Part shown: positions 16,573 through 30,865 of the stretch, piece by piece
Numbering within the stretch: position 1 is the first letter of the stretch
Layout of the letters: every line of letters begins with the position of its first letter
From: a virus
Taxonomy: Duplodnaviria > Heunggongvirae > Uroviricota > Caudoviricetes
Virus record (IMG/VR): IMGVR_UViG_2563366860_000002
DNA: 31,464 nucleotides
Strand: one strand, 5' to 3'
The notes under the pieces: model-generated
Database searches by the model: none
Seen by the model: the letters and a program-made list of their open reading frames with translations, nothing else
Told to the model about the DNA's origin: nothing
Position numbers and translations under genes: made by a program

Positions 16573-16770
16573 CACTTTTTTAAATCCAACGACAGACGGC
16601 TGGCATTTAAGTATTGTGAAATATTATCAAATGTAATCATCATTGATTTACAAAAGATACATTTTGCCCCGAAAGGATTCATGTCAGAAACATCAAAAGA
16701 TGATGTTCTATACTGGGAACCATGACAACACGGGCATCTAAAGTGAATATGGTTTGTAATATTGTCTACC

Positions 16771-16983
16771 TCAAAGCGCCACTACATGAACAGCGGCAGG
16801 ACCTTTAGGTCCGTTCTCAATACCAAATTCAACTTCCTGATTCTCAGTTAATGTTTTGAAATCGTTGCTCTGAATTGCTGAGAAATGGACAAACACATCT
16901 TTGCTGCCATCTTTCGGCGTGATGAAACCAAAACCTTTTTCAGGGTTAAACCATTTCACTAAACCAGTCATTTTGTTAGACAT
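16771..16983 (-). CDS. cspI: Cold shock protein (CspI-like)
   Basis: 70 aa; [38 protein letters not shown]... with canonical CSD RNP motifs (KGFGFI, VFVHF); ~360 bp AT-rich 5' region consistent with a long cold-shock leader. Confidence 0.9.
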
Positions 16984-17346
16984 AATTATTACCTTTTGAA
17001 GAAATTAGCCCTTGGGCAGAATGGTCCGAAAAAAAATATCAGAGAGAAAAACCAACAAGGAAATCTCAAGAGGTACAAATAATAAAATTATAACAATGAC
17101 TGCTTCAGATAAATTTGTAACAAACCAGAACACCATTAACGCATGATTAACCACCCATAGCAAGGATTACTTTTGTAAAGAAAAACACAGCAATGAAAGA
17201 ATAGCTTTATTTATTAATAATAACGTGTCATTCTGATTAAGACCTTTTATCTTACCCTTAAGATTTCAGGAATTTTGGCTCATGGAAGAGTCCTTTTTAT
17301 TTAAATTTTACATTCCGCGATGTAAATGTTCCGATTTAATATTACC

Positions 17347-19375: not shown

Positions 19376-19655
19376 AGATTGTGGTGCTTTTTGTGGGAGT
19401 CATCCACTTACGCACTTTGTTTTGCCATGCCAGCAGTTAGCTTCTGCTGTAAAACTATTCATGCAGCAAACCTGCACTTCACCACAATGGTTAGCATACT
19501 TTTCCTGATTAAGATTTTGCCAAATATGCTAGCCATTGTTTCATGTATTGGACCTCCTTACTTTTTATTAAAGAGATCCAATATTCACTACTCTGTCCGT
19601 ATCTCTACTCAGGCATCAGCCTTCTTCGTTATCGTATACAGACGAGCGATGAATT

Positions 19656-19871
19656 TTAATCAGTAATGATGACATTTGCTGCTGCAGGACCTTTAGCACC
19701 ACTCTCTATAGAGAAGGTAACCTTTTGACCTTCAAATAAGGTTCGATAATTATCATTCTGAATCGCAGAAAAATGCACAAACACATCTTTACTACCATCA
19801 ACAGGAGAAATAAAGCCGAAACCTTTATCAGCGTTAAACCATTTTACTAAACCAGTCATTTTATTTGACAT
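19656..19871 (-). CDS. cspB: Cold shock protein (CspB-like)
   Basis: 71 aa; [38 protein letters not shown]...; canonical CSD. Confidence 0.9.
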
Positions 19872-20171
19872 TCTACATTCCTTAACTTGAGCCTTTCGGC
19901 ATAAATGGTTTGCATAACAGAAACGACTTCGTACTTAATTGGAGAGACTCAAAGAAGGAATAAGTGAATAACACCTGAAATGAGAACTGCTTTAGTAAAC
20001 TACTTCGTATATCGTCTGTTCTTCAAACCGACGCAATCATTAACGCATAGTTGAACATATGAAGCAATGTTTATTTTAGACATCCAGCCATCTTCAACCC
20101 CATCAAAAAACTATAGCTTTCTTCAGGAACGTGTGTATAGTGCGCCAAGTTATCAGTATTAAGGAATTTTT

Positions 20172-23435: not shown

Positions 23436-23591
23436 TTACTCCTCAGGTTCGTAAGCTGTGAAGACAGCGACCTCCGTCTGGCCGGTTCGGATTCGTACCT
23501 CGCAGAGGTCTTTCCTCGTTACCAGTGCCGTCACTATGACGGTTAAACAGATGACGATCAGGGCGATTAACATCGCCTTTTGCTGCTTCAT
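23436..23591 (-). CDS. hokD: Hok/Gef-family type I toxin (HokD/RelF-like), 51 aa
   Basis: MKQQKAMLIALIVICLTVIVTALVTRKDLCEVRIRTGQTEVAVFTAYEPEE; single TM; the overlapping longer frame (to 23648) is consistent with a mok-like leader ORF. Confidence 0.9.
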   Translation of the reverse strand: MKQQKAMLIALIVICLTVIVTALVTRKDLCEVRIRTGQTEVAVFTAYEPEE

Positions 23592-23599
23592 AGCCTGCT

Positions 23600-23720
23600 T
23601 CTCCTTGCCTTTCGGCTCGTAAGAGGCTAACCTACATGTGTCTAGCATGAAATTGGCCTCAGATTAATGTTAAGCGTCTTGCAGGACGCGTAATGTTAAC
23701 TGGGGCTTTTCTCTATCTGC
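23600..23720 (+). ncRNA. Putative Sok-like antisense RNA opposite the hok mRNA leader (approximate position)
   Basis: Inferred from hok/sok paradigm only; the hok leader region is ORF-poor; no promoter or terminator mapped. Confidence 0.3.
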
Positions 23721-23828
23721 CTTTCAGTGTTCATGCCTGAGACAGATAGCCTCAAGCACCCGCAGCCATTCTACTTAACTCACGTCACCTCGCCAATATG
23801 AAATCAATCAGAAAGGTGATCCATAAAA

Positions 23829-27639: not shown

Positions 27640-28065
27640 TTAGTGCATCACCACAGCATTCCCTGCCGGGCCGCCGCGATTCATCTGGTCATACAAAACA
27701 ACCGCTGACGCAACAAAATCATCGACATCCTTCACCAGCCGATCCCTCCGTTCGACGATCTCACGGTAATATTCAGAACTGTGGCTGCGCATACGGGCCA
27801 CCAGCAAAGGCGGCATCGCCTTTTCGATCGCCGGTAACAGAGCCTGCATTTTTTCAACAGCATCAGGGGTGTCTTTCTCTACCCAGCGGAAAATTTTCTG
27901 GGTATTGCGAGCCAGGGCTTCCGGATGGCTGTCGTCATACAGTTCTGGGAACGTCATACCCAACTCAAAATAAGCCTGGGTTATTCCAGCTGCTGGAACT
28001 TTTTCGCCATCAGGACGCGCCCAGGCATTCATCGCCATGCGGATGTGTTCATGCTTGATTTTCAT
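27640..28065 (-). CDS. YdaT-like protein (putative toxin-domain regulator in cII position)
   Basis: 141 aa; ATG with GGAG RBS; overlaps the Cro/YdaS-like gene end by 17 nt; family assignment from memory of Rac ydaS-ydaT. Confidence 0.6.
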   Translation of the reverse strand: MKIKHEHIRMAMNAWARPDGEKVPAAGITQAYFELGMTFPELYDDSHPEALARNTQKIFRWVEKDTPDAVEKMQALLPAIEKAMPPLLVARMRSHSSEYYREIVERRDRLVKDVDDFVASAVVLYDQMNRGGPAGNAVVMH

Positions 28066-28330
28066 GAATCAAGCTCCTAGAAAGTGGTTGTGTTAACGTT
28101 TTGGTATCTTCCAGCTCGGGCCAAATATTCATCCAATCAAAAGGCCTTAGTTGCTGACGTGTAACTTCACCATTACTGGCTCGCTCAATAAGGACACATA
28201 ACGATGCCCCTAACACTTGACCTTTACTCAATGCCTTTCTTAGATAACCGATGCTGGTACCACACTCGCATGCAAACATACGCTGTTCATCTGACGAAAG
28301 AGAATTGAGAAATATTCTTAATTCTTCCAT
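28049..28330 (-). CDS. Cro/YdaS-like HTH regulator (first gene of the early-right operon)
   Basis: 93 aa; strong AAGGAG RBS; HTH-like ECGTSIGYLRKALSKGQV; divergent from the repressor across an operator-bearing intergenic region. Confidence 0.75.
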   Translation of the reverse strand: MEELRIFLNSLSSDEQRMFACECGTSIGYLRKALSKGQVLGASLCVLIERASNGEVTRQQLRPFDWMNIWPELEDTKTLTQPLSRSLIHENQA

Positions 28331-28431
28331 AGCTACTCCTTAGTAAACACAGCAAAAGAATACCCACAGGTAAACAAAAGTCAATACCCACAGGTTGTTT
28401 ACCTTGCGGTAATCGCATCTATTATTTACCT
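28331..28431. promoter_or_regulatory. Divergent promoter/operator region (OR-like) between repressor and Cro-like genes
   Basis: Direct repeats of ATACCCACAGGT (two identical 12-mers ~24 bp apart) plus related GTAAAC/GTTTACC half-sites and TTTACCTATGG over the repressor start. Confidence 0.6.
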
Positions 28432-28851
28432 ATGGACAAATATGAATTTAGACGACAGCAACTCATCAAAATTCGTGATGAGAAATGCGATGGTAAAGCG
28501 GTTAACGTGGCCAGAAAGATCGGGCGCGAGCCTTCTTATGTATCAAGAATGTTGTACCCAGAGGGGAAAAAGGGAAAAAAACGGATCGCTGATGATATGG
28601 TGGAGATTATCGAAGAGTCCTTTGGGTTACCCCGGGGATGGATGGATGGTATCGTTTCATCATCAACGAACACAGCCTCCAGTTATGAAACAAGGGTTCT
28701 AACGCCACGACAACGTATTTTTTTAGATCTCTTAGACGAACTGCCAGAAAGTGAAGCGGATAAATTATTAAAAACTCTTGAAGAGAAAAAACAGTATTAC
28801 AATATGATCTACGAAGAAATCCGTAAAAAGAAAGCACAAAACGCATCATAG
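28432..28851 (+). CDS. CI-like prophage repressor (XRE-family HTH; no LexA-type peptidase domain seen)
   Basis: 139 aa; N-terminal HTH (AVNVARKIGREPSYVSRML); C-terminal region lacks S24 Ser/Lys autocleavage features; divergent from the Cro-like gene. Confidence 0.75.
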   Translation: MDKYEFRRQQLIKIRDEKCDGKAVNVARKIGREPSYVSRMLYPEGKKGKKRIADDMVEIIEESFGLPRGWMDGIVSSSTNTASSYETRVLTPRQRIFLDLLDELPESEADKLLKTLEEKKQYYNMIYEEIRKKKAQNAS

Positions 28852-28889
28852 CTCACCAAACAACTAGTCACCAGTTAAGACACCGCAAA

Positions 28890-28935
28890 AATTTACCCAT
28901 GGGTATTTACTTTTTAAATACCTATGGGTATCCTT
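28890..28935. promoter_or_regulatory. Second operator-like cluster (OL-like) downstream of the repressor gene
   Basis: Palindrome TACCCATGGGTA and near-palindrome ATACCTATGGGTAT ~25 bp apart, sharing the TACCCA/TGGGTA half-sites of the OR-like repeats; TTTACT...TAAATA promoter-like spacing. Confidence 0.45.
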
Positions 28936-29116
28936 CTTTTCATACCAACCCACCCCGCCCCACAGAATGCAGGGCAATACTTCGAGTTACCAGGCAGTGG
29001 TCAGGGGTTAAGTAGCCAGCCCGAGGCGTAAGAACATGACGGCAGGGTTCAACTTTAATAACTATGCAGCAGGTTTTTGTTCCGCTACCCCGGCGTTAAG
29101 GGGAAATGAGGTCAGC

Positions 29117-29269
29117 ATGGATACTATCGATCTTGGCAACAGCGAATCTCTGGTATGTGGCGTGTTCCCCAACCAGGACGGTACGTTCACCGCGATGACG
29201 TATACCAGAAGCAAAACGTTTAAAACTGAAGCTGGCGCGCGTCGCTGGTTAACCAGAAACACTGACTGA
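29117..29269 (+). CDS. Small hypothetical protein (50 aa)
   Basis: ORF 29036..29269; ATG at 29117 with GAGG RBS; MDTIDLGNSESLVCGVFPNQDGTFTAMTYTRSKTFKTEAGARRWLTRNTD. Confidence 0.5.
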   Translation: MDTIDLGNSESLVCGVFPNQDGTFTAMTYTRSKTFKTEAGARRWLTRNTD

Positions 29270-29280
29270 TGAGGTTGACG

Positions 29281-29682
29281 ATGGAATTTAAAGATTTACC
29301 AGTACCATTCCAGGAAATGGCATCGAATGTGGTTCGCTCTCAACTGGCGACTCTTGACCTGAGTACCGTAGAAAAGGAAACCATCGATACTATATCCGGT
29401 AACGTGCGTCGTGCCTTTATAGGTCTGTATGAAGAGAAGCGCCTATTCGGCGGACAGAATTCGCCTGAAAACAAGAATCAAGCAAATGATGAGAAGCTGA
29501 AACACATTATCGCCTTACTTTTGGAAGACGCAAAACGTCTACAGCAACTGGAACCAAATGCAGGCACAGAGGCCCGCATTTGGATTGCCATGAAATCACT
29601 CAAATGTGAAAGCAGTGATTATTTCAAAACAACAATTAAAACTACTCAACTTTCGGGAGAGCTACTGAAGAAATTGCCATAA
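29281..29682 (+). CDS. Hypothetical protein (133 aa)
   Basis: ATG at 29281 with GAGG upstream, 12 nt after the previous stop; soluble, acidic; 3' end overlaps the convergent minus-strand gene. Confidence 0.55.
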   Translation: MEFKDLPVPFQEMASNVVRSQLATLDLSTVEKETIDTISGNVRRAFIGLYEEKRLFGGQNSPENKNQANDEKLKHIIALLLEDAKRLQQLEPNAGTEARIWIAMKSLKCESSDYFKTTIKTTQLSGELLKKLP

Positions 29683-29920
29683 GAGCATAGTCTTTCTCTT
29701 GTTCTGCAAGATGAGCATTAATACCTGGTATGGTTTTTTCAAATTTATCTATCTGTTGAATAACAACTTCGCGGTATACGTTTGTTTTTGTACCACCAAG
29801 CGCAGCCGTTAATGCAGAAAGCATATTTAGTATCATATCAGTGCGATATGAAAGAATCCTGATAGCTTCATCTTGTTCTTCAATAATAGATTGCAGGGCC
29901 TCAATTTGCTTTTTATCCAT
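29642..29920 (-). CDS. Hypothetical protein (92 aa), convergent
   Basis: ORF 29642..29959; ATG at 29920 with strong AGGAGG RBS; predicted helical (MDKKQIEALQSIIEEQDEAIRILSYRTDMILNML...). Confidence 0.6.
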   Translation of the reverse strand: MDKKQIEALQSIIEEQDEAIRILSYRTDMILNMLSALTAALGGTKTNVYREVVIQQIDKFEKTIPGINAHLAEQEKDYALMAISSVALPKVE

Positions 29921-29939
29921 TTCACCCTCCTGAGGGTTG

Positions 29940-30480
29940 GTAATTAAGGAGTTCTCCACGGGTCAGGTGGAGTGCGTGCGCCGGACACGGGTGAGCATCC
30001 GGCACTGACAGCTTACTGAAAGGATATGTCCCTGAAAAGTCAGGGCATAACGCGAAAGCGCACGGCGAAATTGGTCTCTCTGTACGGTGTCGTTAAATTT
30101 AGTTCGACCGTGCGCTTCCGGTTGTGGCACTCCGCGAAATGGCGCGGCGGTAAGTATGGCTGGGGTTTCCTCCATTGCTCCAGAAAATGCACCGGGTTGT
30201 CAGGTTGACCATACGCTTAAGTGACAACCCCGCTACAACGCCCTCTGTTATCAATTTTCTGGTGACATTTGGCGGTATCAGTTTTACTCCGTGACTGCTC
30301 TGCCGCCCTTTTTAAAGTGAATTTTGTGATGCGGTGAATGCGGCTATGCGCACGCGGAACAGTTAAAGCAGTAAGGCGGTATTTTACGGGCGTAACGAGC
30401 ATCAACTAACCCGGCGTTAATTGTTAACTGGTTAACGTCACCTGGAGGCACCAGGCACTGCATCACAAAATTCATTGTTG
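29940..30480. other. GC-rich, ORF-poor structured segment (candidate structured RNA / antitermination or regulatory region)
   Basis: No ORF with an RBS; many stable hairpins (CCGGACACGGGTGAGCATCCGG; boxB-like CCCTGA-AAAG-TCAGGG; GCGCACGG...CCGTGCGC; GGTTGTCA...TGACAACC); ends with GCCGCCCTTTTT. Confidence 0.35.
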
Positions 30481-30491
30481 AGGACGCGATA

Positions 30492-30680
30492 ATGGAAACG
30501 TTATTACCAAACGTTAATACGTCTGAAGGTTGTTTTGATATTGGTGTTCTGCTCAGTAACCGGGAGTTTACTGAAGATGCCATTAATATGAGGAAATATG
30601 AGCCTTATCTGCTCAATGATAATTCCATACTTTCCCGAATTGCTCTTCTTGAACTTGGTATTTTCGGAGAACGTCAATGA
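30492..30680 (+). CDS. Hypothetical early-left protein (62 aa)
   Basis: ATG with GAGGA RBS; preceded by dyad CGTTAA-N-TTAACG; stop overlaps next start (ATGA). Confidence 0.5.
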   Translation: METLLPNVNTSEGCFDIGVLLSNREFTEDAINMRKYEPYLLNDNSILSRIALLELGIFGERQ

Positions 30681-30865
30681 CTTCAGCATTTGCACTGATG
30701 ATGACGGTTTTTCTTATAACGGGTGAATCACAGAATGTGATTACCGGAATTTATGCAAGTAAAGAATCCTGCCTCCAGGCAAGAGACGAGCAAAAAATTT
30801 CTGGTGAATGCCTCCCGCTAAAAAAAGTATCGCTGTACCTGAATAACGAAACACCGGCTGGATAA
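30677..30865 (+). CDS. Small membrane protein (62 aa)
   Basis: Translationally coupled to the upstream ORF; N-terminal hydrophobic segment AFALMMTVFLITG. Confidence 0.5.
   Translation: MTSAFALMMTVFLITGESQNVITGIYASKESCLQARDEQKISGECLPLKKVSLYLNNETPAG

Follow-up and report, generated by a model that had tools for sequence, protein, structure and literature searches.

Do the three small genes that follow the repressor gene of this prophage form a rexAB-type exclusion cassette expressed in the lysogen, or are they early-left genes that the repressor would silence? The DNA in question, hereafter the window, is the whole 31,464-nucleotide (nt) stretch of IMG/VR record IMGVR_UViG_2563366860_000002 (Caudoviricetes), a lambdoid prophage of E. 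coli integrated at ompW. The genes, referred to below as open reading frames (ORFs) 1 to 3, encode 50, 133 and 92 amino acids (aa). An initial annotation had described all three, the last two as a convergent overlapping pair, and each was recovered where it had been placed, with an overlap of 41 nt. The best explanation, which we hold to be moderately likely, is that ORF1 and ORF2 are repressor-controlled early-left genes and that ORF3 is an excludon-like accessory gene at the position that sieB occupies elsewhere.

Repressor, operators and the dicBF-type operon

The control region and the three genes are arranged as follows (OR and OL, right and left operators; PL, early-left promoter).

28361..28396: OR-type operator pair, TACCCACAGGTA at 28361-28372 and TACCCACAGGTT at 28385-28396
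28432..28851, + strand: prophage repressor gene, 139 aa, helix-turn-helix, without S24 peptidase domain (phrog_5736)
28894..28934, + strand: OL-type operator pair (28894-28905 and 28919-28930) overlapping the candidate PL
28906-28911 and 28929-28934, + strand: candidate PL, -35 TTTACT and -10 TATCCT, hexamers read from the sequence, 17-nt spacing
29117..29269, + strand: ORF1, homologue of YdfA/YdaF (DUF1391; Pfam PF07151, phrog_751), 50 aa
29281..29682, + strand: ORF2, 133 aa, with an N-module at aa 1-55 (29281-29445) and a YmfJ-like module at aa 69-133 (29485-29682)
29642..29920, - strand: ORF3, a 92-aa AT-rich orphan gene in antisense orientation (phrog_18692)
29921..29932, - strand: translation-initiation region of ORF3 and of the slot described below, perfect AGGAGG Shine-Dalgarno (SD) sequence at 29926-29931, 5-nt spacer to the ATG

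A search of the 31-kb window for the 12-mer TACCCAYRGGTA, allowing at most one mismatch, returned six matches at four sites, all of them at OR and OL, where the OL sites match on both strands; none of the 100 shuffled sequences used as a control reached six matches. The OL-like operators begin 43 nt past the repressor stop (28851), the start of ORF1 lies 187 nt beyond them, and nothing is found between the repressor gene and these operators. Lambda carries rexA and rexB in the interval from cI to OL, with N after PL. Because the OL operators start so soon after the repressor stop, the slot that rexAB fills in lambda is empty here, and as no gene separates the repressor from the operators, ORF1 and ORF2 take the N-side, early-left position. 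A PL promoter is predicted at 28906-28934, with hexamers that match the consensus at 8 of 12 positions and score under the threshold of the promoter scan. The initial description of the genes as lying just downstream of the repressor was correct as to position only: the operator pair and the promoter-like site stand between position 28851 and ORF1.

These observations bear directly on the proposal that all three genes form a lysogen-expressed, rexAB-type exclusion cassette co-transcribed with the repressor. ORF1 and ORF2 are indeed co-directional with the repressor gene and start 266 nt after it, but the operators and the promoter-like site intervene, members of the ORF1 family sit in a repressed operon in the E. 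coli prophages Qin and Rac, ORF3 lies on the other strand, and no defence matches were obtained from Pfam or PADLOC (PADLOC v2 gave no match better than E 0.02 for any of ORF1 to ORF3). RexAB-type cargo is co-transcribed with the repressor and lies between its gene and OL, a location that ORF1 and ORF2 do not have. We therefore consider the cassette highly improbable, and the rexAB-like assignment of ORF1 and ORF2 is withdrawn; the early-left alternative, which the initial annotation had also offered, fits both genes by their place beyond the operators, and ORF1 also by its DUF1391 membership as the first gene of the operon. The true rex-equivalent slot, directly 3' of the repressor gene and co-directional with it, is filled in some Salmonella and related prophages by a 310-aa protein with a DUF6932 protein, or by a HipA-like kinase with a DUF3037 protein (loci L006 6011-7413, L007 4968-6370 and L135 4628-6276).

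ORF1 matches Pfam PF07151 with an E-value of 1.9e-27 (95.1 bits, cut-off 27.3) over 47 of the 48 profile positions, and its position is that of ydfA in Qin and of ydaF in Rac, where ydaG precedes ydaF. Upstream of it, the leader at 28941-29104 is 87% identical to the racR-ydaG spacer of Rac. A longer, 77-aa form of ORF1 from the in-frame ATG at 29036, as annotated in phage Tritos, was considered and set aside, the 50-aa form being favoured by SD spacing, by the NCBI Prokaryotic Genome Annotation Pipeline (PGAP) and by O157 variants. The 81 nt before the ORF1 start (29036-29116) are 100% identical in Tritos, where the body of ydfA carries scattered differences; such perfect conservation suggests a role of this leader at the RNA level or in regulation rather than in coding.

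Downstream of ORF2, the forward strand continues with the following features.

29933..30256, no strand assigned: conserved non-coding structured element of ~320 nt, with a ~24-bp helix and two proximal hairpins
30257..30308, + strand: DicF small RNA (sRNA; Rfam RF00039, 77 bits against a gathering score of 48)
30492-30680, + strand: dicB (Pfam DicB, E 6.4e-37)
30677-30865, + strand: ydfD-like DUF1482 gene (Pfam DUF1482, E 1.5e-14)

The last two are annotated alike in locus L001. The same order is encountered at the dicBF operon of Qin (ydfA-ydfB-ydfC-dicF-dicB-ydfD), where repressor, operators, DUF1391 gene, spacer element, DicF, DicB and DUF1482 likewise succeed one another; Qin differs in carrying ydfB and ydfC in place of ORF2 and the antisense ORF3, and in that DicA belongs to a different repressor family. 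Judged by these sequence comparisons, ORF1 is the first gene of a Qin/Rac-type dicBF early-left operon, to which ORF2 belongs as well and which is probably under repressor control. In Qin, the dicBF transcript has been reported to begin upstream of ydfA at dicBp, which the cI-like DicA represses, and cleavage by RNase III and RNase E frees DicF from it. The Rac genes ydaF and ydaG were reported to rise ~40-fold as expression of racR falls. ORF1 and ORF2 are accordingly expected to be repressed in the lysogen, because of this homology and of the placement of the operators. Between DicF and dicB, a sub-threshold Rfam match to STnc100 was seen at 30320-30469 on the + strand (30.9 bits, gathering score 47), a stretch that may represent a conserved dicB leader.

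ORF2 is a mosaic early-left gene in which a conserved N-module is fused to a YmfJ-like module. Its PHROG matches split accordingly, with phrog_1363, phrog_6937 and phrog_2151 covering aa 1-62 and phrog_12693, phrog_30817 and others covering aa 69-117, and the AlphaFold2 model (overall predicted local distance difference test score, pLDDT, 63) consists of a confident helical hairpin at aa 1-55 (~83) followed by a linker and a helical C-terminal part of low confidence. The N-module occurs in E. coli in two sequence variants, each joined to different, unrelated C-terminal parts, and aa 69-131 align with a stand-alone 71-aa gene of Salmonella prophages. Against Salmonella, the ratio of nonsynonymous to synonymous substitution rates (omega) of the C-module is 0.14-0.42. 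The match to the YmfJ family phrog_12693 pairs aa 69-117 with profile positions 2-51 of 102 (E 3e-16) and is not full-length; at the DNA level, 97 nt match ymfJ with 78% identity. In total 259 homologues of ORF2 were found, and either module has relatives in Stx2a, Shigella and Pectobacterium phages and in phage pAEv1818, all annotated as hypothetical; none was found in Pfam, PADLOC or the PDB (profile search of PDB sequences). A 137-aa form starting at the in-frame ATG at 29269 was rejected on the same three grounds as the long form of ORF1 (SD spacing, PGAP, O157 variants).

To the left of the repressor gene lie divergent Cro/YdaS-like (28049-28330, - strand) and YdaT-like (27640-28065, - strand) genes and a replication gene. 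The repressor itself matches phrog_5736, labelled 'transcriptional regulator', with an E-value of 6e-70 and has no match in Pfam.

ORF3 and the position of sieB

ORF3 is a real gene under purifying selection. Compared with its Salmonella homologues (70-72% identity), omega is 0.18-0.25 (Nei-Gojobori); between two Salmonella copies it is 0.08, with 28 differences at third, nine at first and none at second codon positions, and the signal is the same when the overlap with ORF2 is removed. The very strong ribosome binding site that the initial annotation had noted is confirmed by the perfect SD sequence and its 5-nt spacer. A rival proposition, which we consider very unlikely, is that ORF3 arose by chance on the antisense strand, or that it belongs to the ordinary lytic-cycle genes and plays no part in the lysogen. 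In favour of that proposition, ORF3 has no clear promoter or terminator and no known domain, and homologous loci disagree in the minus-strand ORFs that lie further upstream across the pre-DicF element. The proposition does not agree with the purifying selection and strong third-position bias, with a perfect SD that is common to many alternative genes at this place, or with homologues that, down to 33% identity and across phage types, keep the length and the motifs ...R-T/S-D-x-x-L-N-x-L-S-A-L... and ...S-S-V-A-L-P.... Moreover, the exact ORF3 sequence is present on at least 960 contigs, and 44 of the 49 copies in an IMG/VR sample are intact.

The ORF3 family comprises ~33 cluster representatives (word-indexed search and full HMMER scan of 1.8 billion representatives), and its hosts, where named, are always Enterobacteriaceae (E. 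coli, Salmonella, Klebsiella oxytoca). Homologues with 33-46% identity are found antisense in the early operons of otherwise different prophages: in P2-like prophages, with int, C, cox and an unrelated converging gene; after S24-type cI repressors; and beside an integrase. With a GC content of 0.37, ORF3 also stands apart from the window (0.49) and the adjacent element (0.54). ORF3 is hence a separate, independently mobile small gene inserted antisense into the early operon. In its AT-rich insertion, its own translation signals and its opposition to the lytic operon it resembles antisense prophage morons, and orientation against the surrounding lytic operon has been described as characteristic of accessory loci. 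It differs from such morons in that no promoter/terminator pair is identifiable at ORF3 and in that the conserved element is also present at loci where the slot is empty.

The predicted protein has an isoelectric point of 4.95 and no transmembrane-like segment, and AlphaFold2 models it as three helices (pLDDT 69). A Foldseek comparison of this model with the PDB gave no match at E <=0.001; the best one, a ribosomal-S20-like three-helix bundle (E 0.36), was treated as non-specific. The initial remark that nothing recognisable matches these ORFs does not hold for ORF1, which belongs to DUF1391, or for the part of ORF2 with the YmfJ-like motif; likewise, the remote homology and structure prediction recommended at that stage yielded a known family for ORF1, a YmfJ-like part for ORF2 and no significant neighbour for ORF3.

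What connects ORF3 with sieB is its position. In lambda, N and sieB are convergent and abutting, so that sieB takes a position analogous to that of ORF3, and in Rac the DUF1391 gene ydaF and sieB converge with a 4-nt overlap. In lambda, P22 and Rac alike, sieB is, as ORF3 is here, a single reverse gene within the early-left operon that converges on the gene just upstream. In addition, the sequences upstream of Rac sieB and of the Salmonella ORF3 homologue have blocks in common, namely an sRNA terminator (of KilS in Rac, DicF-like in Salmonella), GACTACACACAGYAATGTC, CAACCGGAGGCGCACTCC and GAAATRCGCCTTCGTGTTGTGCCC, and therefore ORF3 lies in a slot homologous to that of Rac sieB. By sequence, ORF3 is nevertheless not a SieB homologue: BLASTP gives no alignment with Rac SieB, and PF14163, which matches the SieB proteins of Rac and lambda at E 1e-29 to 1e-31, does not match ORF3. 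The suggestion of a sieB-type gene made in the initial annotation accordingly holds for the location (lambda N-sieB, Rac ydaF-sieB, homologous upstream sequence) and fails for the protein.

The reverse-gene slot and its partners

The region that holds ORF3 is both homologous between prophages and hypervariable. Relative to Tritos and Qin (ydfA-ydfB-ydfC), homology is lost near the ydfA stop (~29270) and returns at 29933, and the slot is empty in Qin and in Tritos. We surveyed this slot by anchoring on the exact leader in IMG/VR (122 loci), with the proximal hairpin as a second anchor. In the 122 loci, four unrelated minus-strand ORFs, A77, B92 (which is ORF3), C73 and D63, stand behind one and the same leader and SD. 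The hairpin-anchored survey added proteins of 64, 69, 99 and 57 aa, two zinc-ribbon types and a 94-aa GhoS-scoring protein, while also meeting loci without a reverse gene; further slot families are preceded by related SDs. This amounts to at least 11 slot families, unrelated to one another by BLASTP. For most alternative slot proteins, PADLOC returned no match better than E 0.02; a 63-aa zinc-ribbon allele weakly matches the candidate model PDC-M14A (E 3.5e-4, 19 bits). The 94-aa protein (MAKFTVRIELR...) reaches 21.2 bits against Pfam GhoS, for which the gathering score is 21. Otherwise, searches of ORF2, ORF3 and their counterparts against Pfam, PHROGs and PADLOC gave only PHROGs of unknown function.

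The 94-aa protein is also 45% identical to gp19 of phage pAEv1818, and gp19 and YmfI of the prophage e14 both match phrog_8894; YmfI may thus be a GhoS/Cas2-like small protein. GhoS-scoring or related loci are L177 (IMG/VR), L138 (2741-3022, - strand) and L003 (3244-3585, - strand).

The convergent arrangement raises the question of whether ORF2 and ORF3 are a cognate effector/immunity or toxin/antitoxin module, in which the variable C-terminal domain of ORF2 would be active and ORF3 its neutraliser, or the reverse. The arrangement would resemble that of pore-forming colicin operons, in which an inducible forward gene faces a convergent, constitutive immunity gene. In the 122 loci, the forward C-terminal part co-varies one-to-one with the reverse gene, with overlaps of 23, 41, 11 and 23 nt; the pair of a 71-aa YmfJ-like gene and an ORF3 homologue, 41-nt overlap included, is kept between E. 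coli and Salmonella at ~70% identity; and a YmfJ-like gene with a YmfI-family gene recurs in e14 and pAEv1818. Linkage between two recombination targets, the N-modules and the element, would however suffice for such co-variation, and the partners do separate. In P2-like prophages the genes that face the ORF3 homologues encode unrelated proteins (109-214 aa) in which only the last ~17 residues are alike, other homologues have no annotated overlapping partner, the YmfJ-like module is also found with the non-homologous reverse genes of the YmfI family in e14 and pAEv1818, and D-type loci contain an A-type forward domain while lacking A77. Co-occurrence of ORF2 and ORF3 is hence not obligate, and neither shows similarity to any toxin-antitoxin or immunity family. 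A cognate module is, in our estimation, quite unlikely.

The tail that the forward genes have in common (...S/P-G/E-E-L-L-x-K/Q-x-x stop) is captured by the overlap, at 29642-29682 in the window and in loci L005, L129, L134 and L136: unrelated forward genes share it because their reading frames extend across the same stretch (21-41 nt) of the conserved 3' end of ORF3. A functional peptide ...SGELLKK... was rejected as the simplest reading, since the codons for this tail fall in or next to the part that overlaps the conserved C-terminus of ORF3.

Among known systems, e14 comes close to the arrangement of the window, its ymfJ and ymfI being an overlapping convergent pair directly downstream of the repressor. 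The N-terminal motif of YmfJ is present in ORF2 (aa 69-114) and is all that the two proteins have in common, the C-terminal half of YmfJ being different. Further differences are that YmfI (phrog_8894, with GhoS-like relatives) is unrelated to ORF3 and that the pre-DicF element is absent from e14. Publications that name ymfI and ymfJ mostly do so when listing the genes of a deletion.

The pre-DicF element and the expression of ORF3

The element that follows the slot is 86-88% identical in Qin (86%), Tritos and O157 and 71-76% identical in P2-like (int-C-cox) prophages; homologues lie at L141 2563-2883, L002 3724-4044, L136 3675-3986 and L134 3667-3987. Its ~24-bp helix is a plausible RNase III substrate, and its proximal hairpins carry compensatory changes (CTCCAC/GTGGAG, CCCGAC/GTCGGG, CCAAC/GTTGG), amounting to 6-7 compensatory base pairs whichever strand is folded. 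No Rfam family corresponds to it, as a permissive E-value scan of 28850-30500 gave only DicF and the sub-threshold STnc100 match. In Salmonella and P2-like prophages, terminator-like hairpins follow the element in the sense of the early operon, at the place of DicF in the window (L136 3600-3680, L134 3600-3650, L005 4712-4770, L140 2906-3003), and Rac has the annotated sRNA KilS at this place. This suggests a DicF/KilS-type sRNA family with differing bodies processed from a common platform.

A reading in which ORF3 guards or regulates its own early-left operon, by dampening leaky, toxic DicF, DicB and YdfD at the RNA level or by stabilising lysogeny, takes up this association: the slot mostly goes together with the structured pre-sRNA element and with an sRNA of the DicF/KilS type that lies before the FtsZ inhibitor gene dicB or kilR. 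DicF and DicB are reported to be toxic when overexpressed, and the one slot allele that reaches the GhoS gathering score recalls GhoS, which in a type V toxin-antitoxin system is the antitoxin and cleaves RNA. However, some ORF3 homologues are found at loci without the element (L130, L132, L135), ORF3 has no nucleic-acid-binding or nuclease signature, and Qin and Tritos manage without a slot gene. We regard such a guarding role as unlikely.

Under the explanation that we prefer, with ORF1 and ORF2 as early-left genes and ORF3 as an excludon-like accessory gene, the OL/PL control region would drive an operon running from ORF1 and ORF2 through the structured element, where DicF would be processed, to dicB, ydfD, an exonuclease gene, xis and int. 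Once the repressor is off or removed, PL would transcribe ORF1 and ORF2. In lysogeny, with PL silent, ORF3 would be expressed from the minus strand, its strong SD serving translation, and the firing of PL would shut it down through convergent transcription over the 41-nt 3' overlap and the double-stranded RNA that results. The ORF3 product would then be a soluble, acidic three-helix protein that needs no dedicated partner and acts as an accessory factor of the prophage; our leading guess, argued only by analogy of position, would be a role in phage exclusion or in abortive infection. The promoter, lysogenic expression and function of ORF3 are what we infer here. Any full-length mRNAs of ORF2 and ORF3 would have to overlap because the coding regions share 41 nt (29642-29682). 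Precedents are on record: the 'excludome' of MG1655, made up of convergent pairs whose transcription overlaps in at least 50% of 58 RNA-seq samples, includes ymfI-ymfJ and sieB-ydaF; in the late SOS response ymfJ is induced by a log2 of 4.8 and ymfI much less (log2 2.0); and in P22 an antisense RNA controls translation of sieB.

A promoter for the slot may be provided by the following candidate.

30038-30033 (-35 TTTTCA) and 30015-30010 (-10 TAAGCT), - strand: candidate slot promoter, weak, predicted from the sequence

In most of 50 distinct upstream sequences, the proximal hairpin is preceded, at a distance of 6 nt, by TTTTCA-17 nt-TAAACT, and diverged lineages have TATTAT or TAAAAT at nearly that position.

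Several points weigh against the explanation that we prefer. Scans found neither a consensus sigma-70 promoter nor a terminator for ORF3; the candidate slot promoter has TAAGCT in the window, matches the consensus at 7 of 12 positions and is also kept where the slot is empty, and its sequence may serve the opposite strand. The G-U patterns of the element are divided, one-sided changes leaning towards the + (DicF) strand and several invariant G-U pairs being found only on the minus strand. SieB, unlike ORF3, belongs to a recognised Pfam family (PF14163) and is, at 162-184 aa, about twice as long, whereas ORF3 is soluble and has no hydrophobic segment. ORF3 shows no similarity to SieB or to any entry of PADLOC, Pfam or the PDB, tblastn over 50,697 deposited phage genomes gave no match, and position is the sole pointer to any exclusion function it might have.

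Distribution and biological meaning

The 2.1-kb stretch at 28400-30500 is 100% identical in the chromosomes of several E. coli strains, WP7-S17-ESBL-01 and EC1 among them, in which xis and int, at the end of the prophage, adjoin ompW. It is complete in just 59 of the 5,426 complete E. coli genomes, and the ORF2/ORF3 cassette is present, at a coverage of at least 80%, in 124 of them; the whole region is carried by no deposited phage genome. On the identical chromosomes PGAP annotates the same three coding sequences (WP_001725971, WP_001339605 and WP_016239000), one as 'DUF1391 family protein' and two as 'hypothetical protein'. ORF1 is thus already known as a family member and ORF2 and ORF3 are annotated hypotheticals, for which no papers were retrieved when the literature was searched by protein accession.

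Elsewhere in the window, on the minus strand, two cspA-thermoregulator matches (16744-17129, 113 bits; 19640-20032, 159 bits) and a sok antitoxin RNA (23586-23761, 118 bits) were found; the sok match adjoins hokD in an identical chromosome, so that cold-shock-type leaders and a hok/sok module are borne by this prophage.

Going further than the explanation given above, ORF3 might act as a new effector against phages (or against defence systems), expressed in the lysogen and independent of a partner, that is silenced from PL and resides in an undescribed hypervariable reverse-gene slot of enterobacterial temperate phages, with the element and the SD serving as a shared expression platform. We put this forward tentatively, as a possibility on the doubtful side. 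On this model, the slot would span lambdoid, Rac/Qin-type and P2-like immunity regions and hold about a dozen unrelated proteins of 57-99 aa, and sieB in Rac, exchanged by recombination; among the slot proteins would be zinc ribbons and helical bundles as well as a GhoS-like fold. We found no earlier description of a hypervariable slot behind a conserved element in lambdoid and P2-like prophages.

Overall, these results turn three 'hypothetical proteins' into a defined anatomy, in which a YdfA homologue is followed by a mosaic early-left gene and, on the opposite strand, by an accessory gene, and correct a tempting misreading, in that 'downstream of the repressor' does not equal 'rex-like' where operators intervene. 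If the slot model is true, enterobacterial temperate phages would offer a compact, easily cloned set of small proteins, of which SieB is the sole characterised occupant and which could be screened for phage exclusion, for anti-defence activity and for control of DicF/DicB. A further pointer would be to a structured RNA that is conserved, has no entry in Rfam and is found alongside DicF/KilS-type sRNAs in many prophages.

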